Shown one piece after another: positions 4,401 to 49,881 of a stretch of DNA of 64,000 nucleotides (its first letter is position 1; the number at the start of each line of letters is the position of its first letter). The notes beneath the pieces are model-generated. The model worked only from the letters and a program-made list of their open reading frames with translations, was not told the DNA's origin and searched no databases. Both the position numbers and the translations under genes were made by a program. Origin of the DNA: a virus (lineage: Duplodnaviria; Caudoviricetes); the IMG/VR virus record IMGVR_UViG_3300026546_000001, positions 1-64,000 of that record; one strand, given 5' to 3'.

Positions 4401-7400
4401 ATGATGTCTAAAACCATCAGTTGGTATTACTAATTCTTTTTCTAAAACATAGTTAGTTAAATCATCTTTAGCAACAAATCGTTTGTTATATGGAAAATAT
4501 TTAGTTTTTCCATCTGTATTTGTGCCTTCTAATAGCATTAAACGTCTTGTTGTATACATCCAATCTTGATGTGCTAAATAATTAGGTTCACCCGTTTCAG
4601 ATATTGCAGAAAATTCAATATATTCATCTTCATTAAATATTGGATATGTGTTATCAACGCACGATAATATATTCTTGGGTATTTGAGCTTTTGGTATAAC
4701 ATAATTTTTATCTCTTAGTAAAATATTAATTTTTCTAGCTAAATAATAATCCGTAATTAACATTCTTGGTATAAAATACTCATATAAATAATCATCAACA
4801 TTTTTTAAATTTAATGGATTATATCTATCTAAATTAATTACATCTTGTAATTTAGTATATTTAACATTACCATCATATCCACTAAGATACAAATATTCAT
4901 CATTTTCAATAAATGATGTTGTATAATCAAAGTTATTTTCTATATTTAGTTTTTCTAATTTAACTGTATAATAATTTGATTCTTTTACTTTAATACTGCC
5001 ATGGATAGTAAATAATGATATTGATTTGTTTGATAATAATAAAAATTTATCAAATCCATCATTATAGTCAACAAAATAATTAACTGATAAAACATTATCA
5101 ATATATGATTCATCAATATAAAATTCAAAATCGCTTTTAATATATTGATCAGTATAATATAATTTTAATTTAGTTATATAACCTTTATCTCCAAATAACC
5201 AAAATACACCATTAATATATTTAATAGTAGTATAATTTGTTTTCAATATAGTTTCATCTGTAGATGAATATATTATTGGTTTAATAAAATAATCTAAATC
5301 ATCAGTTGTAACAGTTACAACGTCTTTATTTAAAATATTATTGTTAATAACCCAACTATTATTAATTAATTCAAAATGTAATATTAATCCAGATTTACCT
5401 ACTACTATTGCGTATTTAGGATCATATATTAAAACATTAGTTAATTCTCTATTATTAATTAATCCATCTGGTATTAATACTTTATCATAAAATTCTCCAT
5501 ATGATGTTGTTTCTAATATAGTTTCGTTTTGTCCAACTACTAATCCATAATTATTTAAAAAATTACTAGAATTTAAAGTGTTATATGTATTAGTATTAAC
5601 AATAGTCCAATTTTTACCAAAATCTTCAGTTTTTATATTATTTCCATTTTCACCATTTATCCAAGCTGTTCCTGTCCAAGTTGGAACGATATAATTATAT
5701 TCATTTAAATTTTTATTGATACTTAATTCAATATCATAATAATTAAACTTAGTATAAGTATTTAATAATTCAATTGAATGCTTTCCATCTATTGACACAT
5801 CAATATTTTTTAATGCTACTCCAAAATCTCCAATCCAAATTTTATATACAGTATCATTTGTTTGTAAAACATTTTTCCAAAAATTATATTCAACATTATT
5901 ATAACATAATCCTACATATTTTTTATCATTTATTATGTCAACGAATAAAAATGAATTAGTATCTATTTTTTGTAATTCAATAAGTTTATTTACATTTCTT
6001 AAATTTATAACTGTATCATATAATAAATGAGACTCAATATTTTTTTCTGTGTTTATTATATTAACACTCGTTGCATTTTCTTTTATTAAAACAGAATAAT
6101 ATTTTTCATCTCCAATTAATGTTAAATCCAAATCTAAATTAGTACTATAAAACATAAAATCTATTATATCTCTACGAACTAAATATATTCTATTTGTCAA
6201 TGTATTATAACGCCATAATTGAACTTTATTACTATTATCAATTGATGCTACGTATAAAATATCATTATATCCTGAAATGCCAAAAATAGTTTTAACATTC
6301 CAACTCCAAAAACGTTGTTCTTCATCTAAATTTTTAATGTATAAAGATGATTGTTCATATACTTTATTATCAGTTGTTATATAATACTTTTTATTATTTA
6401 ATTCTATACCTTTTTTAATATTTAAATTTTCATCATTATAATAGAATGGATATTTTCCACGTATTTTTAATAAACTTGAATATGAACTAAAGGATGATGA
6501 TAATACATATATTATATCATTTATGTCTTTAATATAAACATTGTAATAATTAATATTACCTGTTTGATAATATCCAAATATTAAATTAATATTTAAATTT
6601 GGATAAATACTCATATCAAAAACAGTTCTATTTGTTTCGTCATGTATTAATTTATTATTATCAATATAAAAAATCTTATTATATACAACACAAAAATCTA
6701 TAATTTCATATGGTGATGATAATACTGGTAAGTTTTGTCCTTCTTTAAATATTTTATTTTCAATTAACCAATATAAATTACTTTCATCAACATAAATTGA
6801 TAAAATATTAAAATCAGATACAATTAAATCAACATCTTCTGTTTGAAAAGTAATTTTAAATATATCAGTTTTTATGTCTCCACTCGTTGAAACACCATTA
6901 TTTGTTAGTATATAAATTGCATTTTTATCTGAATTATATAATATTTGAATTGGATTTTCTATTTGTTGTAATGTTTCATCTGTATATAATCCACCAATAA
7001 ATACGCCATTTGCTTGTGTAATTTTTTCATAGATTAATGATGTTTTATCTAATAAATCCCAATAATATATTAAATTCGGATAAGTTACATCTGTTATTTC
7101 AATTGGAATATATCTAACAGATATTTGTGCAGGATTTAAAACAATGTTACTTATTCTAAATTCTTTAATTGTTCCTGAATACAACGGTTCATGTGGATTA
7201 TCACTTTTAGCAATGTAATTTTTTGTCAATGAACTTAATTCAGATATAGTTTTATTAAATTGACTATTTGAAGTTCCAACTAATTGGTCATTAAACCATA
7301 TTTTTCCAGTATAATAATATTTATAATTTTCATCAACTGAATTAATATATTCAACTGTTATTGTGATTCTTACTTCTTCATCTTCATTTATTGGTTCAGT

Positions 7401-10400
7401 TGAATTAATTACTAAATATTCGTTATCAGTTTTTATTTGAAATTTTGGTCTGTTTGTTAAATTATCTTTTATAATAAATTCAACACTATCATATGTTGTG
7501 TCATATTCATCAATTTTTTCACTTCCAAAATAAAATATTCTACTGTTTGTTTTTATTGCATTTGGTTTTAATGTAAATTCAATTGAAATATTTGATATAT
7601 CATTAAACGGTAATACTGGTAATTGTATATAATCATCTTTACCATCAAAGTATCTACTTATTGTATCACTTATTTTTGGTATTACATCTAAACCATTTGT
7701 GCCAACACCTAAAATGTCAACATCTTTTAAATATAAAGTATTATTTTTTATTTCCCAATCACCTAATGAAGATTTAGAAAAATTTTCATAAATATAAAAT
7801 TTTTCTGTTTGTTGCCAATTTAAAAAATCAGTTAAATTCCTAACTGGTTTTTCTAATCTTACGGGAAACTTATCTTGTTGTCTAACATAACTTATTTGAA
7901 CATAATCATCTGTTATTCCAGCTGTACCACTTGTACCTTCGTCTATTTCATTTAATTCATAACCAAATACATATCCATTATAATATGAATCAGGTTGACC
8001 TACATATATGAAATTATCATATCCTGCAATACTATATCCAAATGATCCTGATAAAGATGGATTTGGTGATTTTATAATATCTTGTAAAATCCATTTATTG
8101 TATATAACTTCTTTAAAAATTGTTACAGCACCTTGACCATTTGGTGCACTAACATATAAAATATTATTATAATAATATAAAGATCCACCAAAATCATCAT
8201 AATCATTTGATGTATCATCTAATGTTATTAACTGTATTTCTTCCCAATCATTAAATCCTTTATTTCTAAATACGCACACTGCACCACGTTTTTTACCATA
8301 TTCGTAATAATTATATGCATTTACAAATAAAAATGTATCTGTGATATAAACATTTGCGCCAAATAAATCATTTTCAGTTGTTTTTGAAGACGTAATAACG
8401 TTTATTAATTCCCATTCATCATTATCATTTTTTTGATATAAATAAACCTTTCCAAAATCATCGGCAGTTGGCGCACCAATTGCAAGATAACCATCATTAA
8501 CACTAATAGATGTTCCAAATGCAAAATTTATTGGATTACCATCTAATCTAATTATTTGTTTAGGTGTTACATTAGATCCAGTTGTACAAGATGATCCATA
8601 TAAATCATTTACATTATAAACATATACGCATCCCGAATCATTATTTTCTCCAGGAGCAGTAACAAATAATTCATCATTATAACTTTTAATTTCATTTCCA
8701 TAATTATTATTATCGTTATATACTGTTGGGTGAATCCATGCAATACAATCAAATGTATTATTTGTTACATCGTACACATTAACTCTACCAGTATTGTTAT
8801 ACCATTCTGGTTCACTTACTGCTGCTAAATTATTATCTATTAAATGAACTGATTTACCAAATAAAGTATTTGAAGAATCTCCTTGTTTTGATGTTAATTC
8901 AATTATATTATTATTAGTTGATGTTATATCAAATAAATATACATATCCATTTGTAGTATTTGATACTGCTGATACTAATAATTTATTATTTGAAATTGAA
9001 ATAGAATAACCAAATTTATCGTTATTTGTAGAATTATTTGGTTGTATTTCAACTGGATAATTTAAATCTAAAATATTAAATACATTAATAGAACGTAAAT
9101 CTAAATATGCTATTAAATATTTTGCATGTTCTTCTGATATAATATCATAACCAAATTCAGGATGCCATTGTATAATAGTTTCATCTGTTAATAAAAAATA
9201 CCAAACAACATTATAAACAGTTAAAACTTTAAATTCATTTACATCAAAATTTATATCATATTCAAATAAAAGTTGTAAATTGTCTTTATTATAAAGTTTA
9301 AACCCTTGATTACCATCATTATCAATTAATAAAATATATAATATATCATCTTCAAAAGAAAAATCTTTTATGATAAAATTTTCAAGTTCAAAATATAAAA
9401 AACTTTCATTTGTTAATGGATCTAATTTATAAATTCGCGAATAATTATTTTCATAATTAACATAATATAAATAATCATTTAGTGAATTTAATCTAAAACA
9501 TAGATTTAATGGAAAAAATTCTCCAGATGTTCCTGACGTTCCAGATGTTCCAGATAAATTTAATTGTCCAATTAATAAATTATCTTCTTTTCTTATAATC
9601 CAATTTAAATCTTTAGACGTTTTATATGAATATTGTCCAACATTAACAGATAAATCAAATTTTTCATAATCATATAATATTGGATCCTTATCAATATGAA
9701 TTACACTATCATTATATGTATTACTATTAAGTAATTTATAATCAACTCTATTTCTAATTACATAATTTTTAGCTTCAATAAAATTTATTTCTCCATTTGT
9801 ACCATAAATATAATCTCCATTTGGTTCTCTATCTAAAAAGAATTGCTTATATTTATTTGTTTCACCTAATTTAATATAAACACTAAAATAGTCCCTTTCA
9901 ATATTATCATTAAATATATCTGAAACATTTAAATAATTATTTTTAAATATGTAAATTCCATTTTCAGATTTATTTATTTGATCTTTTAATAATATAGTCA
10001 TGTCATTTTTTATTAATACACCATCTATTACTAAATCAAACCATTCATTATAAATATCAACATTTTCAGTTGATGCAATATCAATTAATCTGAAATTATT
10101 TAATAAATTTATTATTGTTTTATCTGGTGTCCAATAAGTTTCTAATGAATATCCCATTCTTTCTTCATTATCATTCCACTTATCATAAACATCGCTTTCA
10201 TCGTAATTTTCAGTTAAAAATACATTAGTTGTATCATATATTGGATTTAAATAATCATCACCACTTGTTCCATTCGTTCCCAATATATTTACATTTTGTG
10301 ACGTTAAATTAAGATTTGATTCTAAATTTTTAAAATAAATATTATAAAATCCTATATGTTTATCTTTTTGTCCAATTATAATAAATTCTTTATTATTTTC

Positions 10401-11306
10401 ATATAATTTTGAAATTTCAATACCAATTTTTGTTAAAGAATTAATATTTAAAATATTCCATGCTTTAACATTTTTAATTGTAGATATTATTATAACAAAA
10501 TCAGTTATATTAACATTTTCAATCCAATCATTTAACAATGAAGTGTTAATTAATTCATCATTTGTTAAACTATTAATTATTAATTCATTATTTGAATTTA
10601 ATATTGGATTAATTGTTGCATCATATGGTAATCTAGTATTTGAATCAAATGCAACAAAATATATTTTATCTTCATTATTTGCGACGTTTAAGTAATCATA
10701 ATTATTATATTTAAATATTACGTTATTATCTAAATTTATTTCAATATTATTATTTAATAAAAAATTGTTATATGAATCAAATGTATTATTTACTACACCT
10801 GATGTACTATTTAAAATATAACAATTTTCATCTGGATTTTCATTAATAAATTTATTATAATAAACATAATCATTCCAATATGTTAAAGCGCAATCATTAA
10901 AAAATAACAAACTATTAGCAGCTTTAATATAATTTAAAGCAATAGCAGTTCGTATTGTCATTTTTAAAACTCCAGTTTCATCATCTTCATTTACAATATA
11001 ATCTAATTTATTGTTAATAATAATTTCTTTAGAATGTGTTAAAGATAAATTATAAATTTCTCCTTTTTTTAGTAATATATCAGAAATTATTAATTCATTT
11101 GGTGCAGAATCTAATAATTCAACATAAAAACCATGTTGATATAAAATTTCTGAATAAATATTATCTAAATTATTTGTTACTGAATATGTACTAGCATTTA
11201 AACATTTTGAATATGTTTTTAATCTTTGCAAAGTTCTTTTAAATTCAGTACTATTTAAAAATGATTCTTTTTGAATCCATCTTCCATTATTATCTTTAAT
11301 CCACAT
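1485..11306 (-). CDS. Giant (3273 aa) multidomain virion/baseplate/tail protein
   Basis: Tail-fibre-type module (IDIASTENV...IDGV...ILLKDQINKSENGIY), FG-GAP beta-propeller repeats (FGYSISI, FGKSVHL, FGTSISV...LAIGAP, FGANVYI), LamG-like domain (FDGKDDYIQLP...YSGTIKEFRI), YCF48/BNR-like propeller (KTEDFGKNW), C-terminal GxWxx pentapeptide repeats, GTSG linkers. Confidence 0.8.
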   Translation of the reverse strand: MWIKDNNGRWIQKESFLNSTEFKRTLQRLKTYSKCLNASTYSVTNNLDNIYSEILYQHGFYVELLDSAPNELIISDILLKKGEIYNLSLTHSKEIIINNKLDYIVNEDDETGVLKMTIRTAIALNYIKAANSLLFFNDCALTYWNDYVYYNKFINENPDENCYILNSTSGVVNNTFDSYNNFLLNNNIEINLDNNVIFKYNNYDYLNVANNEDKIYFVAFDSNTRLPYDATINPILNSNNELIINSLTNDELINTSLLNDWIENVNITDFVIIISTIKNVKAWNILNINSLTKIGIEISKLYENNKEFIIIGQKDKHIGFYNIYFKNLESNLNLTSQNVNILGTNGTSGDDYLNPIYDTTNVFLTENYDESDVYDKWNDNEERMGYSLETYWTPDKTIINLLNNFRLIDIASTENVDIYNEWFDLVIDGVLIKNDMTILLKDQINKSENGIYIFKNNYLNVSDIFNDNIERDYFSVYIKLGETNKYKQFFLDREPNGDYIYGTNGEINFIEAKNYVIRNRVDYKLLNSNTYNDSVIHIDKDPILYDYEKFDLSVNVGQYSYKTSKDLNWIIRKEDNLLIGQLNLSGTSGTSGTSGEFFPLNLCFRLNSLNDYLYYVNYENNYSRIYKLDPLTNESFLYFELENFIIKDFSFEDDILYILLIDNDGNQGFKLYNKDNLQLLFEYDINFDVNEFKVLTVYNVVWYFLLTDETIIQWHPEFGYDIISEEHAKYLIAYLDLRSINVFNILDLNYPVEIQPNNSTNNDKFGYSISISNNKLLVSAVSNTTNGYVYLFDITSTNNNIIELTSKQGDSSNTLFGKSVHLIDNNLAAVSEPEWYNNTGRVNVYDVTNNTFDCIAWIHPTVYNDNNNYGNEIKSYNDELFVTAPGENNDSGCVYVYNVNDLYGSSCTTGSNVTPKQIIRLDGNPINFAFGTSISVNDGYLAIGAPTADDFGKVYLYQKNDNDEWELINVITSSKTTENDLFGANVYITDTFLFVNAYNYYEYGKKRGAVCVFRNKGFNDWEEIQLITLDDTSNDYDDFGGSLYYYNNILYVSAPNGQGAVTIFKEVIYNKWILQDIIKSPNPSLSGSFGYSIAGYDNFIYVGQPDSYYNGYVFGYELNEIDEGTSGTAGITDDYVQISYVRQQDKFPVRLEKPVRNLTDFLNWQQTEKFYIYENFSKSSLGDWEIKNNTLYLKDVDILGVGTNGLDVIPKISDTISRYFDGKDDYIQLPVLPFNDISNISIEFTLKPNAIKTNSRIFYFGSEKIDEYDTTYDSVEFIIKDNLTNRPKFQIKTDNEYLVINSTEPINEDEEVRITITVEYINSVDENYKYYYTGKIWFNDQLVGTSNSQFNKTISELSSLTKNYIAKSDNPHEPLYSGTIKEFRISNIVLNPAQISVRYIPIEITDVTYPNLIYYWDLLDKTSLIYEKITQANGVFIGGLYTDETLQQIENPIQILYNSDKNAIYILTNNGVSTSGDIKTDIFKITFQTEDVDLIVSDFNILSIYVDESNLYWLIENKIFKEGQNLPVLSSPYEIIDFCVVYNKIFYIDNNKLIHDETNRTVFDMSIYPNLNINLIFGYYQTGNINYYNVYIKDINDIIYVLSSSFSSYSSLLKIRGKYPFYYNDENLNIKKGIELNNKKYYITTDNKVYEQSSLYIKNLDEEQRFWSWNVKTIFGISGYNDILYVASIDNSNKVQLWRYNTLTNRIYLVRRDIIDFMFYSTNLDLDLTLIGDEKYYSVLIKENATSVNIINTEKNIESHLLYDTVINLRNVNKLIELQKIDTNSFLFVDIINDKKYVGLCYNNVEYNFWKNVLQTNDTVYKIWIGDFGVALKNIDVSIDGKHSIELLNTYTKFNYYDIELSINKNLNEYNYIVPTWTGTAWINGENGNNIKTEDFGKNWTIVNTNTYNTLNSSNFLNNYGLVVGQNETILETTSYGEFYDKVLIPDGLINNRELTNVLIYDPKYAIVVGKSGLILHFELINNSWVINNNILNKDVVTVTTDDLDYFIKPIIYSSTDETILKTNYTTIKYINGVFWLFGDKGYITKLKLYYTDQYIKSDFEFYIDESYIDNVLSVNYFVDYNDGFDKFLLLSNKSISLFTIHGSIKVKESNYYTVKLEKLNIENNFDYTTSFIENDEYLYLSGYDGNVKYTKLQDVINLDRYNPLNLKNVDDYLYEYFIPRMLITDYYLARKINILLRDKNYVIPKAQIPKNILSCVDNTYPIFNEDEYIEFSAISETGEPNYLAHQDWMYTTRRLMLLEGTNTDGKTKYFPYNKRFVAKDDLTNYVLEKELVIPTDGFRHHDMPETLQNDINTSIRNEIWTDGNVGNFPEQYYHTVLYVNSNFTVDANDVIELKIFRTETGLNGLDYTKILLKESFIIKAVESVDASTNKIVLWALLDPEILTEIEPVSNEYNSWNIRLENLNYFNGHLSDLKNKISKHLVGEVYTIDINEKDYIYVSTNITNNTKYFNLESQITINTILSNNEKFNVKYSDSIIYGPNYNLLTFLNRINPIFNNNYDFGNFEFIGTLFASQTEYELDISRNLLYAGTYYFDNNSNNDLSKFKEGTWVDIEKGNEIIKRVYIDKIEKYYDVNDRYVIKFTFDTNLDDALLTNNSILKIKTRYKLEQISLDLNWTDNINTPTPATDGEYAIGTNGTAGLFEITSQMGSYYNGWHNYVKTATSYAKVLTNDHNVKKYISAIVWIDDNNDLKLNIFNWNNDPNFAFRPIDLHIVGIDASEDELFDYYDDTNNDSVTEFVGSSQKIYGLKRAISIFNTNWNINDNIFGLTNVDTTKYNFILTDGLILQKLNSDYYWILNADIRDAVIGLKNVDNNEYLKWYKGTWLCGIWENGYWYSGTVYNIKWIAGEWFTNSPVNNFNVWSIDTSINDKKMSIWYNGEWGSGIWHNGIWYNGIWYNGIHENGDWYDGKWLNGVWNYGNWTGGEHFNGTWLDGIWNTNNVSSIWYNGIWLGGDFENGIWMNGIWDQAANKLSRFGTKSTLVQKAIWYFGIWKNGEFHNYLNTDENGNAITSKNYNSSIWYNGNWLAGSWYGGTWKHGIWGNGVWYNGLWKSDLQLKYVEQYILYEDHNQEDYIQARLIFKNKHYYNRTSQHLDFNNQDTDNLASLQINKITIFGDPNIDNGIMPEIAPQLGWNSFPIDHPVEIVDDYTLIIKIFKNGYYYNRYINAPLLTDNGTSGTSGTSGYDVCLDENIEIVKSPVKNIYDTFTTYYDGPYTVSHWINGTWHSGIWENGYWSNGRWFGGLWLDGVWERGNFGK

Positions 11307-20159: not shown

Positions 20160-23100
20160 TTATAATGGTCTTCTATTTATTCGTTTTATTGGTTTAAAAA
20201 ATAATGAATTTAATTTTTTAATTACATTTCTGCTATTTTTTCCAACATTTACGTCATTAGTATTTGGTTTATTTATAACTGGTGTTTTCTTACGTAAAAT
20301 ATCAACTGGTTTAGTGTGTATTGTAGATATACGTTCGTCTCTCATTAATTTTTCAGTATCATTTTTATATACATCTAAACGTTTACGTATTTTACTATAT
20401 AAATCAATTTTATTTATAGTATTACTTTGTTTTGTGACATTTTCGTGTTTTATATGTTTCACAATTCCTATTTTTGATTTAATTATATCTCTAAACCCAT
20501 GTTTTCTATCAATTGGACGTTTACGCTTTATTATTGGACGTTTACGTCTAAAAAATGTTTTAGGTAATTTTTTTATTTTTGGAATTGGCGGATCTAATAC
20601 CGGCGGTGGAGCTGGTATAATTGGTTTTTCATCTGGCTCAGGTTCAGGTATAACTGGTGGAACAACAACTTCTTCTTCCAATGGTGGATCAACTGGATCA
20701 GGTTGTACAACTGGAGATTCTGGTTGAGGTGGAATTTCATCAACATAAACTCTATTACTAGGTGTTGTATCCATAATTTTAATTTTACTAGTTTTCCTAG
20801 TTATACTACTTGGTGGTAATTCAACTTCATATCTATCATCACTAATACCACGAATATTAACAGATGAAACATACCATTCAATATTTGATCCATCTTGAAC
20901 TATATTTGTATTACTAGTAAATAACGATATAATATCAGATCTATGTGATTCTGTTATTGTTGTTATATAATCAGTTCCAGTATTTACAACTGATGTAATT
21001 TCAGCTACTATATCTTTAACTTCAAATACAGGTTTACTTTTATCATATATTAATGAACCTAATTGTTCATCAAACGTCCAATAACCAATTAATGATTTAA
21101 ATGGATTTAAATATGATGTTGGTGTTAATAATAAATCATAATTTTGATAAATTTCATGTTCATTTCTAGCATAATTCCAAATACGTAATTCATCAATATA
21201 ACCTTCAAAATTAACAATTCCATTATTATTATCACTTCCAATATTTATATTCCAATCTTTTTGATCTACTATAGTTTCAGGATCAATTATAATATTAGTT
21301 AAATTAATATTTTCAATAATATTATCTTTTTCTCCATCAACATATATTATCTTTTGATGATTTTTAGAATCAAATACACATGCAATATGATGCCACAATC
21401 CATCATTAAATTCAAAATCACTAACTATACTATTTACATAAATTGGTGTTGTGTTTATATTTATATTAGTAATATCATTTGGATTTGTTAAAATATATGA
21501 TCTAGTAACAAATTCTATTTTATTAGTCTTTTTATATCTTCTAATAATCCATGAATAAGCTGTATAATCATCAAGAGATCCCTTATGTAATATTGTTTGA
21601 TTTTCAATCGAAAATTCTGTAACATTTATCCACATTTCAATTGTAATATCTTTAATTGCTTTATTTGAAAAATTAGTTTTATTACTATTTTCTCCAAAAT
21701 ATTTTAAATATCCTATTTTTGAATATTCAACTATTGATGTATTTGGTAATGCAATAATTTTACTTGATGTATCTTCAATTGTATTATGATAACTTTCAAT
21801 TGAAAAATTATATTCATATCCATAATATTGTGATATAATGTCATATTTAATATTTTGTTCATTTAAACTAATATTTGATATCGTATAATATGGCTCTAAT
21901 TGTTTTTTCATACTTAGTTCAAAATCTTCAATATTAAACGATTTAACATCTTCAATTATATACGTAATTTGAATAACACCTTTAGTTTTTGAAATAACAT
22001 CAAACATTATATCATTATCTGATATATTTGAATTTAATGTTGTTTTAGGATAATTATTTAATAATTGAATTTTTCTTAAAGAATATAAATCGCCGTTTGT
22101 ATTAGTTTCAGATATAAATTTAGATTGAACATATTTAACACTCGAATATGTTAAAACAGCAATTTGATCTTTATTTCTATTAAATGCTAACACAACTCCA
22201 TCTAAATCAGAAAAAATATAATTATATTGACTATCATTATTAAGATCATAATATTTAATAATACTAGTATTTTCTAAATTCAATAATGAGAATTTAATTG
22301 AATTGTTAAAATCTAAGTTAAATAATTTAAGTTCACCTTTAATTTTACTTGGATTTGTAATTTTAAATGTAAAATCTTTAATATACATAGTATTTACATT
22401 ATTGACATTGTATGATTTACCATTTGATAATTCATATCCATTAAAGTAATTTAATAATAACATTGGTCTAACATACATTGGTTTACCATATGTAACATAA
22501 TTTGGAACTGTATATGTTTCAGTATATCTTGAATAATTAGTACTACTTGGATTTACATCACTTGCAACAAAATAAACATGTCCATTATTATATCCAACGT
22601 CACCTGATAAATTATGATCTGCAGATGTATTACCAGTATAATTTTCTCCATACAATCTAATACCACAGAAAAAACTTTGTCCAACTTGTGCCGCAATACC
22701 ATCATCTTCTAAAAATGATTTAACTGCTACTGACATAGTTATTCTTTGTCCTGGAAAAACTCTTATATTTGTATTATATTCAAAATAACTATATCCAGCA
22801 TGAGAATATTCAAGAGCATTTTCTTCTTTATTATAAGTTAATGATCCACTTCCATATCTACCTCTTGTCCAATTTGATGGAATTAAAGATGCATCATTTA
22901 AAACATTCATAATATCTAATTCGCTTAAATCATCAGGTGTATTTATTTGAAAATGAGATATTCTACCAATTAAACTTTGTGATGGATTATATCCACCCCA
23001 ATCAGAATCTTGTTCTTGTGCAATTGTACCTGAAGTTATTTCTAATTCAGTATCATTATAAATATCTTGATGCACAGAAATTCCATTTAATGTATATGAA

Positions 23101-26100
23101 ACAATATTATTAACGCGTTCTAAAATAAATGTATATGTTTTATGTAATTCAATATTGTCATGATTCATTATTTTTTCATATTTTGCAATTCCAACATGAA
23201 TTTTTTTATCATCTGTTTTAATATACATTAATATTTCATTATCTCTGTTTTTATTAGTATTAGAAAAACTATAAATAGTATTTATACCACTATTAAATGA
23301 ATCTAATTGAAACGTAACTTCAATTCTAAAATCAGTTAAAATTCCAGGAGATGGATTTAATTTAATTCTTGATGATATATCACCATTAAAAATCATCCAA
23401 CCATTATTAAATACAATATTTGCATGACCTTTATAAATATTACCTTCATGTTTTATATGATTTGAAGTAGATGCATATATTAATCCATCATAATTAAAAT
23501 CAACTATTATTGGTTTAGTTACTTCTTCTGTATATTCATATTTTTCAGGTACAACATTAAATTTAATATCATCTTCAATTACTAATTTAGAATCAGTACC
23601 ATTAAAAAATACACAATATCCCGATTTATCTGGATATTTATTGACTGGCATTTGTAATAATCTAGATTGTATATAAAAGTTTTTATCCCATGTTGATTGA
23701 AAAATATAACGTTGATTTACATCATATCCATATTCGTCAACCATTGGATAAATACTTCTTTTATCTGCATCATTTAATTTACTTAATTTTAATATATTTC
23801 CATTTAAATTACATTTTGAATATACTATTTCATTTATATAACCAAAATTAGTTAAAACTGGCCCAGTTTCTTTGTTATCTGAATAATCATCATAAAATTT
23901 CCAATTTTTAAATAATAATGTTGGAATATAATCATTAGTTTTATCGAGAGACCAGTGATTTAGCGGTCTAAATAATTGTAAATCATTAAATATTGGTACA
24001 TATATACCACTATGACGATATATTTTAGGATCAACTATTTCATTTAAATCATATATATTTCTTTTATCAATTGATTCAGACATATTAAATATTCTAGCAA
24101 TTGGATAACCATCCCATGCATTTATGTCAGTTATACTATTAACTAATGCTCCTTTTGATGTATGTAATGGATCGCCAGTTGGATTATTAGGATCATCATC
24201 AATAATAATTCTATTTTTAATACTATTATTAATAAATAATGAATTTTCATGAAACATTTCAACTTTATATGATTTATCTTTAATTAAAAATTCTTTAGGT
24301 AATTCAAAATCAAGTATAAAATCAGTATTCGTTGTATTATAATATTTTGTTGTTCCATCTTCATAAATATGAATATATTGAATTGGTTTTCTACCAGAAC
24401 CATTTATAGGATCATAATTATAATCATTTAAAATTGTTAAAAAATCTAGCAATCTTAAATCTCTAATTCGTATATCACCAATTTGTTGCGTGTCATTTAT
24501 TTTTATCTTTCCTAATTCCCAATAATTTATATTAGTGTTTTCATCTATTATTGTATCTGCATCATATAATTCATCAATTATTGCTGTTTCTAAATTTTTT
24601 AAAACATATGGTACGTAACCAAGAGATTTTAATTCTTCAGGTGTTTTATTTGTTGGTGGTGGATTATCATAATTGTAAGCAAATAATGTACTATTTTCAT
24701 TATATGCTTTAAATGTGACAGGTAAATCTGTTTCAAAATATAAATGAACTAAAACATTTTTATATTTATCATTTAAATAAATATCAATTCCAAAATCTCC
24801 ATCATTATCTCCTGCATTATTTTCAAATATTGATAATTTTCTACCTAATACAATTGAAAATTTATAATCATTATATTTTGATGATGTTGATTTAACATAA
24901 TCATCAACTATTTTTAAATTTTCAGTTAAAAATTCTTCATTAAAAATTGTTTCTTTTACATCATATAAATAATATTTAATACCTTTAAACACAGTATTTG
25001 GAACATTAATATTATCACCGTTTGAAAATAAACTATATTTTTTAGTTAATAATAAACCATTTGTTGTTAATACATCAGTATTAAATATCCAATTAAAATA
25101 ATCAAATTCTCCTTTAACATATTTATCAATATTAAAAAATTCTTCATTTAAATGCAATGAATAATATTTATAATTTTCAGGTAAATCAGTAACACCAAAT
25201 CGATAAAAATAATCTAAATCTTTATATTGTCGTACTGCATATGGAATATTTGTTATTGCATTAGAATCCATGTTATATAATCCGCCAGTATCTAAATCAT
25301 AATTTAATCGGTATGGATAATCTGCATGACTAATACTATTTAATATTCCCCATTTACAAACATATTGATTTTTATTTAAAATTGGAGAAATGCTTGTATT
25401 GTTATTTCGTATTTCAAATAATTCTTCAGATGTAACATATTCACTTGAAACAGGTACATAATTTAAATCTAATGTTTCATTTGGATCTTTTACACTTTTT
25501 GAATATGGTGCCCATTCCATCGTATATGCCATTGGATATGCATTTGTTCTATAATCAACATTTGTTGGATCGTCCCATGGTAATTTGATTTTTATTTCAG
25601 TTGGTTCTGAATTACTTAAAAAATCAATATATTTATCTTGTTCATTTTCATTATCACTTTGTAATAAAATATAACCTTCTTCTCGATACCATTCTCTATT
25701 AAGATCAATTTTTTTAATATCTGGTTTACTAAATGAAGTATAAACATAATTACCATTATAATCTTTTTCCCATAATGGATTTCCTGTTTCTGAATCTATT
25801 AATTGTTCACCTGATTCATCTAACACAGGTATTCTAGTCGGATTTATATAAAGAGGTAATTTTTTTTGATATTCTTTAATTGTTAAAGAAATTGAATTTT
25901 GTTCATTTGGATCATTATAATAATAATTTCCAATTCTAAATGCATATGAATTTATAATATTACTCCATTTAAAATCAATATATTTTTCATATGTATCAAA
26001 ATATATTTTATTATATAATTCAGTAATTTCATCTTTTTTATAAATAGTTCCATCATCTTCATATTGTCTCATCCATTCAGTATATGAATGTGGATCGCTC

Positions 26101-27983
26101 AATAAAAAATCTTTAAGACCACTATTTGTAAAATTATTTACATTTAGTTCTTTAGGTTTTTCAAGTTTTATTGTATTTTTTCTACGATCTTTACCATATA
26201 ATTTTGGTTCTAATGATTCAGTTAATACATCTTCTTTTTCATATTCATAATTAGTATATTTAGTTTCAATTCTATCAAAATCAAAATCTTTAACATCTAA
26301 AAAACTAGCTCTACTAATACTATATGTTATTGGATAATCATTTATTATAACTCTTTCAATATTTTTAAAATGATAAAATTCAGGATCTTTAGTATTTATT
26401 CCATTATTAATCCATATTTCTTCACTTTTCTTATTTATTTTAATAGCTTCGTCTGATAAAATATAATATTTACTACCTATATTTGGTATTGTATCTGGAT
26501 AACGTTTAATAACATATTTTTTATTATTAATTTCAATCCAAACTAAATCAACATCATCAAAATGTTCAATATCAAATAAATTATTATTTAATTCTCCTTC
26601 TAATGTAATTGTAAAACCCCAAATTAATTGCCCATGTACAATATATTGTTGAAAATTTCGTTTAAATGTTATAAACATTGTATTTGTGTATTCAATAATA
26701 TTATGTCCTACTATATTATCAAATATTACATTATCAATTATTTCTATTTGATGCTTTAAAGTATTTAATTCATTTATTAACACTTTTTTATATTGATCTT
26801 GTAATTGAGTATTCGTAATATCAGGTGGAACACTATGTTCTATATTTATTGGCGCAATTACTTTATACGCATACTTACCAATTATTAAATCATCGTCATT
26901 TAATGTTCTTTCTAATCTATAAAATTCTCCATTCCATTCAATAAAATATTGTTTTCCTTCTTGCCATCCACCTAAAATTGGATCAAATGTAAATCTTCTT
27001 AAACCTATATCTTGAACAAACGTATTATTATATAAATATGGAATTTCATTAACTTCTTCAGGCGTTAATTGTTGTAATTTTTCAATTGGAATTTTATTAA
27101 GTGTAAATGGTTGATATGGAGAAACTTTTTTAATTTCTTCAACTTCATCAATATAAAAACCAACATACCTATTTAAAGACCATTTTTTAAGTGTTTCAGG
27201 TGTTGCTGGTGTATCATCAAATAAAAATTTAAAATTATAAATAAATGGAAATATTAATCCTAAATCTTTCCATTGATTTGTAAAATATTCTTCAGAATGA
27301 AATATAGGAGTGTTTAATTTATACTTATTTTCTAAATGTATTGATTTTGATACATAACCAGATTTTTCATAATCAATACCATAAAACTTACTTAATCTTA
27401 AATCTTCAAAATGTACTTCCATTGCATTATTAGGAAATAATTCATGATTCATTTGTGTTCTTATATATTTACCAATATCTGATTTATCAGTTAAATCAAA
27501 ATATGACACAATTTTCCATTTATTTAAAATATCAGATCTAAAACTTGTTGGATTATTATTATCAGTTAATCCAGATCCATCAACTCTAAATATTATAAAT
27601 GATTCTGGTAATTTATCTTTTTTAAGCCAAATTGGAGCAATATATTCATATTCTTCTTCATAATATGTATCTTCAGTCCATGATGCGCCTGAATAATAAG
27701 TATCATCAAATTGATTAACAAAATCATCATACATGATATTATCATCATTTAATGTTTTACTATAAAATGCTGTTTCTGCTGGCACACCAGTATAAAACGC
27801 TGGTATTTCTTCAAATAACCAATTATCCTTATTAATTTTAAAATGTTTAAAACGTTCTTCAGATAAAGTTCTATTAACTGAATAACTTTCTAAATAGATA
27901 TCATTATTTTGTGTAATTACAAGCTTAACATTTGTTGTTAATGCAGGATTTGTTCTAATTAAATAAAAACTTTTTTCAATCAT
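20160..27983 (-). CDS. Giant (2607 aa) virion/baseplate protein with LamG-like domains and a Pro-rich then highly basic C-terminus
   Basis: ITIEMWIN...DGLWHHIACVFD...IYVDG...FEGYIDELRIWNYAR...GYWTFDE LamG signature; second LamG-like region (IAQEQDSDWGG); PEPEP/PAPPP segment; RRKRPIIKRKRP tail. Confidence 0.8.
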   Translation of the reverse strand: MIEKSFYLIRTNPALTTNVKLVITQNNDIYLESYSVNRTLSEERFKHFKINKDNWLFEEIPAFYTGVPAETAFYSKTLNDDNIMYDDFVNQFDDTYYSGASWTEDTYYEEEYEYIAPIWLKKDKLPESFIIFRVDGSGLTDNNNPTSFRSDILNKWKIVSYFDLTDKSDIGKYIRTQMNHELFPNNAMEVHFEDLRLSKFYGIDYEKSGYVSKSIHLENKYKLNTPIFHSEEYFTNQWKDLGLIFPFIYNFKFLFDDTPATPETLKKWSLNRYVGFYIDEVEEIKKVSPYQPFTLNKIPIEKLQQLTPEEVNEIPYLYNNTFVQDIGLRRFTFDPILGGWQEGKQYFIEWNGEFYRLERTLNDDDLIIGKYAYKVIAPINIEHSVPPDITNTQLQDQYKKVLINELNTLKHQIEIIDNVIFDNIVGHNIIEYTNTMFITFKRNFQQYIVHGQLIWGFTITLEGELNNNLFDIEHFDDVDLVWIEINNKKYVIKRYPDTIPNIGSKYYILSDEAIKINKKSEEIWINNGINTKDPEFYHFKNIERVIINDYPITYSISRASFLDVKDFDFDRIETKYTNYEYEKEDVLTESLEPKLYGKDRRKNTIKLEKPKELNVNNFTNSGLKDFLLSDPHSYTEWMRQYEDDGTIYKKDEITELYNKIYFDTYEKYIDFKWSNIINSYAFRIGNYYYNDPNEQNSISLTIKEYQKKLPLYINPTRIPVLDESGEQLIDSETGNPLWEKDYNGNYVYTSFSKPDIKKIDLNREWYREEGYILLQSDNENEQDKYIDFLSNSEPTEIKIKLPWDDPTNVDYRTNAYPMAYTMEWAPYSKSVKDPNETLDLNYVPVSSEYVTSEELFEIRNNNTSISPILNKNQYVCKWGILNSISHADYPYRLNYDLDTGGLYNMDSNAITNIPYAVRQYKDLDYFYRFGVTDLPENYKYYSLHLNEEFFNIDKYVKGEFDYFNWIFNTDVLTTNGLLLTKKYSLFSNGDNINVPNTVFKGIKYYLYDVKETIFNEEFLTENLKIVDDYVKSTSSKYNDYKFSIVLGRKLSIFENNAGDNDGDFGIDIYLNDKYKNVLVHLYFETDLPVTFKAYNENSTLFAYNYDNPPPTNKTPEELKSLGYVPYVLKNLETAIIDELYDADTIIDENTNINYWELGKIKINDTQQIGDIRIRDLRLLDFLTILNDYNYDPINGSGRKPIQYIHIYEDGTTKYYNTTNTDFILDFELPKEFLIKDKSYKVEMFHENSLFINNSIKNRIIIDDDPNNPTGDPLHTSKGALVNSITDINAWDGYPIARIFNMSESIDKRNIYDLNEIVDPKIYRHSGIYVPIFNDLQLFRPLNHWSLDKTNDYIPTLLFKNWKFYDDYSDNKETGPVLTNFGYINEIVYSKCNLNGNILKLSKLNDADKRSIYPMVDEYGYDVNQRYIFQSTWDKNFYIQSRLLQMPVNKYPDKSGYCVFFNGTDSKLVIEDDIKFNVVPEKYEYTEEVTKPIIVDFNYDGLIYASTSNHIKHEGNIYKGHANIVFNNGWMIFNGDISSRIKLNPSPGILTDFRIEVTFQLDSFNSGINTIYSFSNTNKNRDNEILMYIKTDDKKIHVGIAKYEKIMNHDNIELHKTYTFILERVNNIVSYTLNGISVHQDIYNDTELEITSGTIAQEQDSDWGGYNPSQSLIGRISHFQINTPDDLSELDIMNVLNDASLIPSNWTRGRYGSGSLTYNKEENALEYSHAGYSYFEYNTNIRVFPGQRITMSVAVKSFLEDDGIAAQVGQSFFCGIRLYGENYTGNTSADHNLSGDVGYNNGHVYFVASDVNPSSTNYSRYTETYTVPNYVTYGKPMYVRPMLLLNYFNGYELSNGKSYNVNNVNTMYIKDFTFKITNPSKIKGELKLFNLDFNNSIKFSLLNLENTSIIKYYDLNNDSQYNYIFSDLDGVVLAFNRNKDQIAVLTYSSVKYVQSKFISETNTNGDLYSLRKIQLLNNYPKTTLNSNISDNDIMFDVISKTKGVIQITYIIEDVKSFNIEDFELSMKKQLEPYYTISNISLNEQNIKYDIISQYYGYEYNFSIESYHNTIEDTSSKIIALPNTSIVEYSKIGYLKYFGENSNKTNFSNKAIKDITIEMWINVTEFSIENQTILHKGSLDDYTAYSWIIRRYKKTNKIEFVTRSYILTNPNDITNININTTPIYVNSIVSDFEFNDGLWHHIACVFDSKNHQKIIYVDGEKDNIIENINLTNIIIDPETIVDQKDWNINIGSDNNNGIVNFEGYIDELRIWNYARNEHEIYQNYDLLLTPTSYLNPFKSLIGYWTFDEQLGSLIYDKSKPVFEVKDIVAEITSVVNTGTDYITTITESHRSDIISLFTSNTNIVQDGSNIEWYVSSVNIRGISDDRYEVELPPSSITRKTSKIKIMDTTPSNRVYVDEIPPQPESPVVQPDPVDPPLEEEVVVPPVIPEPEPDEKPIIPAPPPVLDPPIPKIKKLPKTFFRRKRPIIKRKRPIDRKHGFRDIIKSKIGIVKHIKHENVTKQSNTINKIDLYSKIRKRLDVYKNDTEKLMRDERISTIHTKPVDILRKKTPVINKPNTNDVNVGKNSRNVIKKLNSLFFKPIKRINRRPL

Positions 27984-28048
27984 TATATTTTAGTATAAAT
28001 ACATATTTGTATTATATATTATAATTAATAATATAATGATTAATTCTA

Positions 28049-36500: not shown

Positions 36501-36520
36501 AAGAAAAATAATTATTTACT

Positions 36521-36548
36521 AACGGCATTCAAATGAATGCCGTTTTTT
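36521..36548 (+). terminator. Intrinsic terminator
   Basis: AACGGCATTC-AAAT-GAATGCCGTT followed by TTTT. Confidence 0.85.
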
Positions 36549-42867: not shown

Positions 42868-42900
42868 AAAAAATCGCTAATTTAAATTAGTGATTTTTTT
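42868..42900 (+). terminator. Intrinsic terminator after uvsX
   Basis: AAAAAATCGCTAAT-TTAA-ATTAGTGATTTTTTT. Confidence 0.75.
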
Positions 42901-43288: not shown

Positions 43289-43384
43289 TTAATATATTAA
43301 AATATAATTGTTGAATAAAAAATAATTTATTATTAATATTATATATAATGATTAATTTAATATATAAAAAAACTATAAATACGA

Positions 43385-44116
43385 ATGCCAATTAAAGGAA
43401 AACATCTTGTTGATAATACAATATCACAGGAAAAATTAAATATTACAACAGACTCGGTTATTTATGATACAGATATAACTAATAAAGAATACGTTGATTC
43501 TGTAATTGATGATCAAGTATCTAATATTAGATATAATAAATTAAATAGAAACATGCAGGCTTTAAACGCAGGAGTTGGAGACAAAGCGTGTGAAGATGCA
43601 ATCATTGAATTTAATATTACTAACGTTAGAGTAACAGTTAATGGTGTTGATGTAAATGTTGGTCCTGGACTTGACTGCTATTTTTCAAATGATGGTGGTA
43701 TAACAGCAAAAGAATTAGGACAAGAACAAAAGGGTGATTTTTTATACTGGAATTCAAGCAAATATATGCTAGATTCTTCTGATGAAATTGATTTTATTTA
43801 CCTAGTTGCGTATGAATATTTAGTTGAAGGAGCAAATGGAACTATTATAGTTGATCCAACATATGACAATGTTGTAGTTGAATACACTGGAGATCCTGGT
43901 ACCACATCAATTGTTACGATAGAAGATGAAGATTTTATTGTAGGAAATGTGAATGGTAATTTTGTTTGGGATATTGGTGGAACAAATGAACATACATTTA
44001 CATCTGTAAATGAATCTATAGTTCAAAATATAAATGGAAATGATTATACTATTTGGTATGATGGACAAGGTAGTTTAATATTCAGTGTTGCTAAAGGTAA
44101 TCACACAATGATTTAA
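43385..44116 (+). CDS. Virion structural protein (short form); in frame with the downstream BACON repeats
   Basis: Acidic beta-rich protein with DITNKEYVD tail-fibre-like motif; TAA at 44114-44116 is followed directly by an open frame. Confidence 0.75.
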   Translation: MPIKGKHLVDNTISQEKLNITTDSVIYDTDITNKEYVDSVIDDQVSNIRYNKLNRNMQALNAGVGDKACEDAIIEFNITNVRVTVNGVDVNVGPGLDCYFSNDGGITAKELGQEQKGDFLYWNSSKYMLDSSDEIDFIYLVAYEYLVEGANGTIIVDPTYDNVVVEYTGDPGTTSIVTIEDEDFIVGNVNGNFVWDIGGTNEHTFTSVNESIVQNINGNDYTIWYDGQGSLIFSVAKGNHTMI

Positions 44117-45481
44117 TATTATTTAAATGCAACTCCTACAACATTTAATTTATCAAGTTCATCATCAAATAATAATCAAATTAATATAAATAGTAATGTT
44201 AATTGGTCTGCAAGCGTAACACAAGGTTCTGATTTTATAACATTAAATGTAACAAATGGCACAGATGATGGAACAGTTACGTTTAATGTTAATGAAAACA
44301 CTAATGTTGAAACAAGTAGATCTGGAAAAATAACAATTGTAAATGATAGTGGAATTGTTGATGATATTATTATAACAATTAATCAAGAAGGAGAATATGC
44401 GTATCTTAGTGTTGATCCTTCTAGTTTTTATTATGATAGTAATTCTCATTATAATGAAGATATATCAGTGTCATCAAATAACGATTGGACTGTAGTGTCT
44501 GGAGATGATATATGGATAAATTTAAGTAATGATAGTGGAAGTGGAAATGGAACAATTAGTTTTGATATAGAAGAAAATACATCAACTGACAATAGGAGCA
44601 CGTATATATATGTTGAAGATTCATTTGGAAATAGTGAGAATATTACAATTGATCAAGATGGAGCACCTGCATACATAAACGTTAGTCCAACATATTTTTC
44701 TGTACCTTACAATTCTAGCAATGGAGAAATAATTAATGTATCATCTAATAATTCTTGGTCAGCATCATGTAATGATTCATGGATAACTATAACAACTGCA
44801 AGTGGAAATAATGATGGATCTATTGATTTTGATATATCAGAAAATACATCGACTGATAGTAGAAATACGTATATATATGTTGAAGATTCATTTGGAAATT
44901 ACCAAACAGTTAATATTGATCAAGACGGTGCACCATCCTATATAAGTGCTAATCCAACATCATTTTCGTTTGATTACAATAGTCAAAATGGTCAATCAAT
45001 TAGTATTAGTTCCAATGATACATGGAATGCATCATGTAATGATTCATGGATAAATATTCAAACAAGTAATGGTACTGGAAATGGTCCAGTTGATTTTGAT
45101 GTTGAAGAAAATACAGATACAAGTTCATCTAGATCAACAACAATAGAAATAAGTACAAATGGAGGTGAATCAGTAAGTGTTACAATTGATCAAGATCCAG
45201 CGCCAGTTCAATTAGATGCTTCACCTCAATCGTTTTCCTTTGATTCATCTAGTCATTATGATGAATATATAGATATCACATCAAATACTAGTTGGAGTGC
45301 ATATTCAAATGAATCTTGGATTTTAGTTAATACTTCTTCAGGAACTGGAAATGGTTCAGTTGATTTCAATGTCGAAGAAAATACAGATCAATCTCAACGA
45401 AGTGGATCAATTGTGATATCTGATGATGATGGAAATATTAGTATTACTGTTACAATTGATCAAGATGGAGCAGTTATTTAA
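44117..45481 (+). CDS. Five tandem BACON (Ig-like) domains, in-frame continuation of 43385-44116
   Basis: Repeats of lxvxPxxf...ISSNxxWxAs.ndsWi....GxGnGxvxFxvxENT...Rsxxi.i....xtixQdG. The frame is open from 44117 but has no ATG/GTG/TTG until 44468, which falls inside domain 2. Confidence 0.85.
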   Translation, partial: YYLNATPTTFNLSSSSSNNNQININSNVNWSASVTQGSDFITLNVTNGTDDGTVTFNVNENTNVETSRSGKITIVNDSGIVDDIIITINQEGEYAYLSVDPSSFYYDSNSHYNEDISVSSNNDWTVVSGDDIWINLSNDSGSGNGTISFDIEENTSTDNRSTYIYVEDSFGNSENITIDQDGAPAYINVSPTYFSVPYNSSNGEIINVSSNNSWSASCNDSWITITTASGNNDGSIDFDISENTSTDSRNTYIYVEDSFGNYQTVNIDQDGAPSYISANPTSFSFDYNSQNGQSISISSNDTWNASCNDSWINIQTSNGTGNGPVDFDVEENTDTSSSRSTTIEISTNGGESVSVTIDQDPAPVQLDASPQSFSFDSSSHYDEYIDITSNTSWSAYSNESWILVNTSSGTGNGSVDFNVEENTDQSQRSGSIVISDDDGNISITVTIDQDGAVI

Positions 45482-45483
45482 TA

Positions 45484-45891
45484 TTAAATTTCTATATAAA
45501 CACTATACAAATGGTACGACATCATAGTCGTACCATTTAATGTTGCTATACCTATAGGTTCAAGTGTAGCATATTCTAATGCGTCATAAAATGCTTGTTG
45601 TGTAATAAACTTATTTGTAATATATTTAATTTTACCATACACGCCAATATTATCTTTAAAAGGATAAAATAATCCAATAACATCAAATAAACTTAATTCT
45701 AAATTTTCAGGTTTTGAATGTGTTATAAATATATTAGAAGCAAATATAACATTTTTTGAATACTTTACATCAGTATATAATTCACTATAATAATCATCAA
45801 ATTTAAAAAGATACATTTTTTCATAATCTTCAAAATGATTATCATAAAAGAATTCATTATTATTGTTTGTATATCTAATATATTTTTTCAT
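45484..45891 (-). CDS. Hypothetical protein
   Basis: ORF track; directly downstream of nusG. Confidence 0.65.
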   Translation of the reverse strand: MKKYIRYTNNNNEFFYDNHFEDYEKMYLFKFDDYYSELYTDVKYSKNVIFASNIFITHSKPENLELSLFDVIGLFYPFKDNIGVYGKIKYITNKFITQQAFYDALEYATLEPIGIATLNGTTMMSYHLYSVYIEI

Positions 45892-49501: not shown

Positions 49502-49534
49502 AAAAAAAGAGATATATTAAAAATATATCTCTTT
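49502..49534 (-). terminator. Intrinsic terminator directly after the tmRNA
   Basis: AAAGAGATATAT-TAAAA-ATATATCTCTTT hairpin with a T-run on the minus strand. Confidence 0.8.
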
Positions 49535-49535
49535 G

Positions 49536-49881
49536 TGGACGTTACGGGAGTCGAACCCGTGTCCGATACGTTGTCATAAGTATAATCTACATGCTTAGTA
49601 TTTTTAAGGTAAAATACAAACCATAAAATTTGTCATTTTTATTAATTCATTTTAGTAATAAAATAACAAAAAATACTAAAATATAACTTCTTTATGACTA
49701 CCAATATGATTTAACGAAGTTATTAAATCTAGTAGTTTGCATTGTAATTCTTAATCACGCTGCAAATGCAAAAGTTTCTTTGCCATTTATAATTGTTCTG
49801 CAAAAAGTTTAACGAGATTATTACAATTACTCGACATGCATATACTTATAATCAATGTACGTCAAAAGCCAAATAACGCCC
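49536..49881 (-). ncRNA. ssrA: tmRNA (transfer-messenger RNA), tag peptide (A)GKETFAFAA
   Basis: 5' GGGCGTTATTTGGCTTTTGAC; 3' GGACACGGGTTCGACTCCCGTAACGTCCA with T-arm; acceptor stem GGGCGTT/AACGTCC with G3-U wobble and discriminator A; internal ATAAAT-GGC AAA GAA ACT TTT GCA TTT GCA GCG TGA (49784-49755); 346 nt. Confidence 0.95.

Follow-up and report, generated by a model that had tools for sequence, protein, structure and literature searches.

A probable recent nonsense allele between the anchor and the five BACON domains of a putative late gene in a giant phage

The window analysed here comprises 64,000 nucleotides (positions 1 to 64,000) of the IMG/VR virus record IMGVR_UViG_3300026546_000001, a linear record of 158,295 bp with a GC content of 23.5% and an estimated completeness of 34%, CheckV placing the missing part at ~300 kb. 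On its plus strand, positions 43385-45481 form a single reading frame whose sole interruption is a TAA at 44114-44116; 243 codons precede this stop and 454 follow it, and a hypothetical read-through product would be 698 amino acids (aa) long. The codons before the stop encode an N-terminal anchor domain, and those after it encode five BACON domains. A sequence-only reading of this stretch had described the same frame broken by the same TAA, which translation bears out, and had proposed that programmed readthrough of the stop gives a short and a long virion protein, a proposal that our results do not support. Instead, the TAA is probably a recent nonsense or loss allele, an ordinary knockout of the adhesin part that captures the loss of a module in progress. 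A recent nonsense mutation, possibly as an ON/OFF allele, had been named as an alternative in the sequence-only reading, and it fits the evidence best.

According to this interpretation, one late gene of a giant phage, which probably infects a Bacteroidota host, would encode a modular surface protein consisting of an N-terminal anchor of ~240 residues and an exchangeable C-terminal module, here the five BACON domains. A single-base nonsense change would have created the TAA four codons past the module joint, and the gene would now yield the 243-aa anchor only, which in related phages naturally has a gene of its own. The BACON array would be untranslated and yet still intact because the change is recent.

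The frame behind the stop has the properties of a genuine coding sequence. It contains no stop codon, versus 24-86 stops in the other five frames, which argues against a chance open frame, and its GC content at third codon positions (GC3) is 9% versus 8.3% for the genome, indicating that the module is native to the phage and truly coding. The whole post-stop frame matches the BACON family PF13004 (1.8e-37, 127.5 bits) and the viral BACON_2 family PF19190 (2e-33, 114.6 bits), both far above the curated cut-off of 25. In the profile scan, BACON domains 2 (44393..44662), 3 (44663..44929), 4 (44930..45196), and 5 (45197..45481, including the terminal TAA at 45479-45481) score 32-41 bits each when scanned singly; domain 1 (44117..44392) reaches 17.4 bits with BACON_2, under the Pfam cut-off, with a match that extends from residue 3 behind the stop. 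The five repeats are mutually 34-57% identical, with domain 1 sharing 34-43% with domains 2-5. Four BACON domains of the array are thus solid and one is divergent, and the earlier domain assignment, including a stop at the boundary between the anchor and BACON domain 1, is borne out, with domain 1 weaker than the rest. The frame contains no ATG; the first ATG, GTG, or TTG is the GTG at 44468, codon 118 of the frame, which lies inside domain 2, so that domain 1 is without a start codon, as had been noted from the sequence.

Like the BACON proteins of Bacteroidota and crAss-like phages, this module carries tandem BACON domains above Pfam thresholds; it differs in that the best arrays recovered by protein search are only 28-31% identical to it and none of them has this anchor. 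No close relative of the module was found in the viral or metagenome contig searches, and the sole relative with the same BACON module is a near-identical strain represented by an ENA contig (L038), which was reached via a cluster look-up.

The anchor belongs to a family of its own. Its 243 codons (43385..44113, plus strand) encode an N-terminal helix motif followed by beta domain A (residues ~49-141) and beta domain B (~150-239), and the AlphaFold2 (AF2) model (pLDDT 85) shows the N-terminal helix and the two beta domains. No Pfam or PHROG match was found for it, and a tblastn search of phage GenBank sequences with the anchor gave no match. An exhaustive profile-free search recovered 554 representative relatives at E <= 1e-3, including 29 at E <= 1e-30, and in most of the full-length matches the domain occupies residues 1-240 of proteins of 440-1080 aa. 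In-frame fusions of the anchor to a module are present in L001, L002, L013, L032, P0002-P0008, P0017, and P0018, and ~20 anchor relatives are fused to other binding modules: RCC1 (P0003, L002), the DUF5122 propeller (P0002, P0018), Kelch (P0017), BNR or sortilin-type propellers (P0006, P0007, L032), and DUF285 repeats (L001, L006). BACON-like domains are found in a long paralog (L012:2499-3887), fused to the same N-terminal motif and domain A.

The joint between anchor and module can be placed to the base. The two nearest relatives, L001 and L002, share 89.7% and 82.8% DNA identity with the window, and both alignments break off exactly at 44101, the last base of the AAT codon for the N of ...AKGN. 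Straight after this motif, both relatives continue with sense codons and a different module. In the window, the junction (44099..44116, plus strand) runs from this AAT through the linker H-T-M-I to the TAA, four codons beyond the break, and reads ...CAC ACA ATG ATT TAA TAT TAT TTA AAT GCA.... With a conserved N-terminus, unrelated C-termini, and a sharp break between them, these alignments describe one conserved anchor to which exchangeable binding modules are joined at a fixed point.

This arrangement resembles that of modular phage receptor-binding and decoration proteins, such as T7 gp17-type fibres and the N-terminal docking domains of CBA120 tailspikes, in the conserved N-terminus, the sharp break, the many unrelated modules among relatives, and a predicted late expression. 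It differs in that the anchor described here has no Pfam or PHROG family, and its fold resembles PDB entries 7rfv and 8i4m only weakly (Z below 6). What is new here is an unnamed anchor family of predicted late proteins of giant phages, with a precisely mapped swap point and a wide set of modules.

The fold of the anchor gives weak hints of its location. Domain A weakly resembles the sandwiches of phage tail, neck, and fibre-docking proteins (Z 5-5.9, wide VIA search), a Foldseek search of the PDB with the anchor model returned nothing at E <= 0.001, and the BFVD matches are uncharacterised phage proteins, one of which is named 'capsid decoration protein' (2.6e-4). We infer that the anchor protein may sit on the virion. 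The earlier description of the product as a virion protein would agree with the late motif before the gene and with these weak fold hints.

The two halves share one set of putative expression signals. The record encodes tail sheath, large terminase (TerL), tail fibres, a UvsX-like recombinase, NusG, and a transfer-messenger RNA (tmRNA), and its gene leaders are A/T-rich and without a Shine-Dalgarno (SD) motif, which suggests that the host is probably a member of Bacteroidota. The 8-mer ATATATAA occurs upstream of 35 of 126 open reading frames (ORFs), a 20-fold enrichment. Its form AATATATAA precedes the ATG of many genes by 17-22 nt, those for the sheath, TerL, and three fibres among them, and is probably a late promoter. 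Two ATATATAA copies (43341..43367, plus strand) precede the anchor gene, and the proximal one (43360-43367) is 17 nt before the ATG at 43385; judging by this motif, the anchor-BACON gene would be late and expressed with the structural genes. The upstream recombinase gene carries another motif, TAAACAA. This second recurrent motif, TAAACAA(T), is found 15-60 nt before the recombinase, an RNase HII-neighbour, and other genes, and probably marks an early or middle class. Example sites of the two motifs lie at 43360-43367 and in the 28004-28012 region of the window, and in the 112757 region of the whole contig (G000). No copy of the late-promoter motif is present inside 43385-45481, and a hairpin with a 13-bp stem (45508..45539), a likely terminator that the scan calls on the minus strand, lies 27 nt past the BACON stop between convergent genes, with no comparable hairpin between the anchor and BACON halves. 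With one promoter before the gene, none inside it, and a hairpin only after the BACON part, the halves look like one late transcription unit. If the stop is an ordinary nonsense allele, both would best be annotated as one disrupted gene.

The second strain shows that the stop is real and how the two halves have diverged. In 13,014 bases, the ENA contig L038 (54 kb, syntenic) differs from the window by 8 substitutions and 1 indel (99.93% identity), and its junction is identical to that of the window, TAA included. A further contig of ENA-type alleles (L040, Logan SRR7971592) ends at window position 42890, before the anchor gene. Over the compared region (30990-51480, 20.5 kb), the neighbouring genes carry 5 synonymous and 2 non-synonymous changes (ratio of non-synonymous to synonymous rates, dN/dS, 0.09), and the anchor carries none. 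The BACON part carries one synonymous change (45073, domain 4) and two non-synonymous ones (Y>S at 44877 in domain 3, N>Y at 45053 in domain 4), a dN/dS of 0.53 from tiny counts, and the residues replaced in the two latter cases are ones in which the five repeats differ from each other. The 3 changes compare with 0.62 expected under neighbour-like constraint and 2.2 under neutrality, giving a likelihood ratio of ~9 for neutrality and a binomial p = 0.05 for excess density, all from 3 substitutions only. On these very small counts, the BACON part evolves as if relaxed between the strains.

Other members of the anchor family are also broken, and some lack the module altogether. In L005, whose anchor is 65% identical, an in-frame TGA (L005:1090-1092) interrupts the first RCC1 blade 10 codons beyond the joint, where it aligns with the Lys of the first VKSFGRN blade in the fused relative P0003, and the frame behind it is open to the contig end and without a start codon. 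This TGA is either a second near-joint knockout or a better leaky-stop candidate than the TAA of the window. L006 carries a TAA (L006:5535-5537) ~100 codons into its DUF285 module, on a contig with 3.6x coverage, and L007 a frameshift at a GGGG run (L007:1185-1245) in another DUF285 module. Clean stand-alone anchors of 233-273 aa are encoded in L008/L009, L010, L011, and L012 (L012:4001-4732); these proteins extend 1-5 residues beyond the domain, and the genes that come next are unrelated or have a start of their own. Taken together, the family members look like stages of repeated module loss, from fused through broken to stand-alone. The short and long forms envisaged by the sequence-only reading are plausible as such, since stand-alone anchors and uninterrupted fusions, including an anchor-BACON-like one, both exist among relatives.

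Two of these loci carry further genes beside the stand-alone anchor. In L012, the long BACON-like paralog (L012:2499-3887) and the short 243-aa anchor (L012:4001-4732) are tandem paralogs; a possible BACON remnant behind the latter, a 22-residue in-frame match with 9 of 22 identical residues (E 0.014 in a tiny search space), was rejected as too weak. In L011, the stand-alone anchor is followed by a separately initiated leucine-rich-repeat protein (L011:990-2450) whose N-terminus (MSFQDYNLGLVPNDGTGTP...) resembles common phage fibre N-terminal motifs, suggesting a two-gene arrangement of anchor plus binder.

Accessory fibre genes inactivated by a nonsense change or a frameshift are known from otherwise fit phages, the stf frameshift of lambda PaPa being an example. 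As in such phages, one small mutation would here have switched off an accessory host- or glycan-binding arm, while everything else in the phage stays intact and the frame behind the break can still be read. The locus differs from them in that the break lies exactly at a module joint and the short product is a natural stand-alone gene in relatives.

Several observations weigh against a simple nonsense allele. The stop falls exactly in the linker between the anchor and BACON domain 1, which has a random chance of ~2% among ~458 eligible codons, and the relative L005 has a stop near its joint as well. The chance rises to ~20% if only clean truncations between domains are tolerated, and such a filter for cleanly folded products weakens the coincidence; it would also explain the near-joint stop in L005, since a propeller allows truncation at no other place. 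In addition, the 454 downstream codons contain no further stop or indel, so the frame either remains in use or acquired its stop recently, within roughly 1-4% divergence; with ~4.7% of the possible point changes in the BACON frame creating a stop, the lack of a second lesion only bounds the age to this range. Moreover, the TAA is the consensus in two sampled populations, the strain statistics come from 3 substitutions and diversifying selection on an expressed adhesin would look identical, and the remainder of the genome, of which the contig covers ~34%, may hold a suppressor tRNA.

Among the alternatives, a population polymorphism, in which TAA and a sense codon coexist and one-base switching follows fluctuating selection, is unlikely on the present evidence. 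A single substitution can turn the TAA into a Tyr, Gln, Lys, Glu, Leu, or Ser codon, the C-terminal module has been broken or lost repeatedly in the family, and the BACON frame is intact, all of which would suit an ON/OFF switch. However, both consensus sequences carry the stop, no sense-codon variant encoding the 698-aa protein is present in the protein collection, and neither a repeat nor a homopolymer is present at the site to make switching more frequent.

Readthrough or suppression of the TAA, either programmed or selected at a low level, would give mostly 243-aa anchors and a few 698-aa anchor-BACON arms per virion, and it is quite unlikely. The layout would permit it: the linker holds the stop, with 2 codons between it and the BACON_2 match, translation could continue behind it in the same frame, which is open throughout and has no ATG, one late promoter stands ahead of both halves, and the only hairpin lies past the BACON frame. 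In L012, adjacent genes encode a long BACON-like form and a short one of 243 aa, and a phage may want both together. Apart from the long start-less extension of 454 codons, however, the other features looked for in a readthrough site (a leaky stop or context, conservation, and a stimulatory structure) are absent. TAA terminates 111 of the 132 ORFs of at least 100 aa on the contig, and no terminator context is more frequent than TAA-T (47 of 109), so the stop signal at this site is the phage's own standard one. The RNA at 44085-44235 folds at -17.3 kcal/mol versus a shuffle mean of -17.6 (z = 0.09), giving no structure after the stop. Relatives with other modules, L001 and L002 included, all lack a stop at the corresponding place, and the other breaks in the family differ in kind and position. 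The relaxed appearance of the BACON part between strains speaks against readthrough as well. UAA is also the least leaky stop codon; basal readthrough in E. coli has been given as ~0.2% for UAA and ~2% for UGA (PMC8954436).

Two of the checks suggested by the sequence-only reading, a stop kept in homologs and a suppressor tRNA or release-factor gene, gave negative answers. No tRNA, and hence no suppressor tRNA, was found on the 158-kb contig, and neither was a gene for release factor 1 or 2 (RF1 or RF2); the contig represents ~34% of the genome, and the other two thirds leave room for possible tRNA genes. A contig-wide scan for two long frames split by one stop recovered only this locus as genuine; six further in-frame-stop pairs were rejected as F/L/S-rich antisense shadow frames. 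One genuine in-frame stop on 158 kb does not agree with a reassignment of the type of codes 4 and 15, and a genome-wide recoding of TAA was rejected, TAA being the main stop. The phage stop-codon reassignments named in PMC11210395 are those of TAG and TGA, with TAA unmentioned there. Two other routes past the stop were discarded. For a translational hop from the AUU at 44111, nearby AUU landing sites run straight into TAA; in frame, the first AUU lies 66 nt off in BACON domain 1. An SD-led restart at the ATG at 44108 would take place in a phage without SD motifs, and that ATG is followed by an Ile codon and then the stop.

Known recoding systems resemble this locus in part. The A1 protein of Q-beta (Allolevivirus) is made by way of a leaky UGA that is conserved among relatives. 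The likeness is that an in-frame extension behind a stop would yield a minor, long structural form; the difference is that the UAA-U of the window is standard, unconserved, and signal-less. Ig-like domains are reportedly added to a fraction of phage structural proteins via programmed frameshifting (Fraser et al. 2006), with SPP1 gp17.1* and the Listeria phages A118 and PSA as examples of frameshifts. These share with the window the idea of sub-stoichiometric C-terminal adhesion domains on a structural protein. In those cases, however, a slippery site leads into another frame, whereas the window has a single frame and no slippery site.

A stop that is kept as a gate, opened by rare readthrough or by an ochre-suppressor tRNA whose gene lies in the two thirds of the genome missing here, is improbable. 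If true, each virion would display many bare anchors and, interspersed with them, a few anchor-BACON arms, and the gate would be the first UAA-based two-isoform display in a tailed phage, with the TGA of L005 as a parallel case. Such a leaky-by-design stop would be a new way to set the copy number of an adhesin on the virion, and no positive support for it was found.

Separate translation of the BACON part, from the GTG at 44468 or from a non-canonical start behind the stop, is very improbable. Gene callers do give a 337-aa ORF from this GTG, and L011 shows a split arrangement of anchor and separate binder. However, a start inside domain 2 would forfeit domain 1 and part of domain 2, the ATG-less frame offers no near-cognate start in the first 20 codons behind the stop, a promoter motif inside the gene is lacking, and a free BACON array would be anchorless. 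Finally, an error of sequencing or assembly at 44114-44116, to which metagenomic contigs are generally open and which the sequence-only reading had raised as a base-call error, is close to refuted, because the same TAA is present in the independent assembly L038, which differs at 9 other positions.

Some further features of the window lie outside the anchor-BACON gene. The tmRNA (49533-49881, minus strand; Rfam RF00023, 95.9 bits; tag GKETFAFAA) clusters with rhomboid, macrodomain, NADAR, and RNase R-like genes, according to the gene calls of the syntenic ENA contig. Two giant ORFs (1485-11306 and 20160-27983, both minus strand) encode 3273 and 2607 aa, respectively; the one of 2607 aa has the late motif and no PHROG match. 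An intergenic hairpin at 36518-36547 (stem AACGGCATTC / GAATGCCGTT) has both of its loop bases changed from AA to TT at 36532-36533 between the two strains, which is an inversion-like difference in the loop of a likely terminator.

If the TAA is an ordinary nonsense allele, as we consider probable, the locus would cleanly capture the way in which adhesion modules are acquired, exchanged, and discarded on one conserved anchor domain in giant gut-type phages. It would also help to define a new anchor family with ~550 representative members, which spans fused, broken, and stand-alone forms and whose exact swap point has been mapped.

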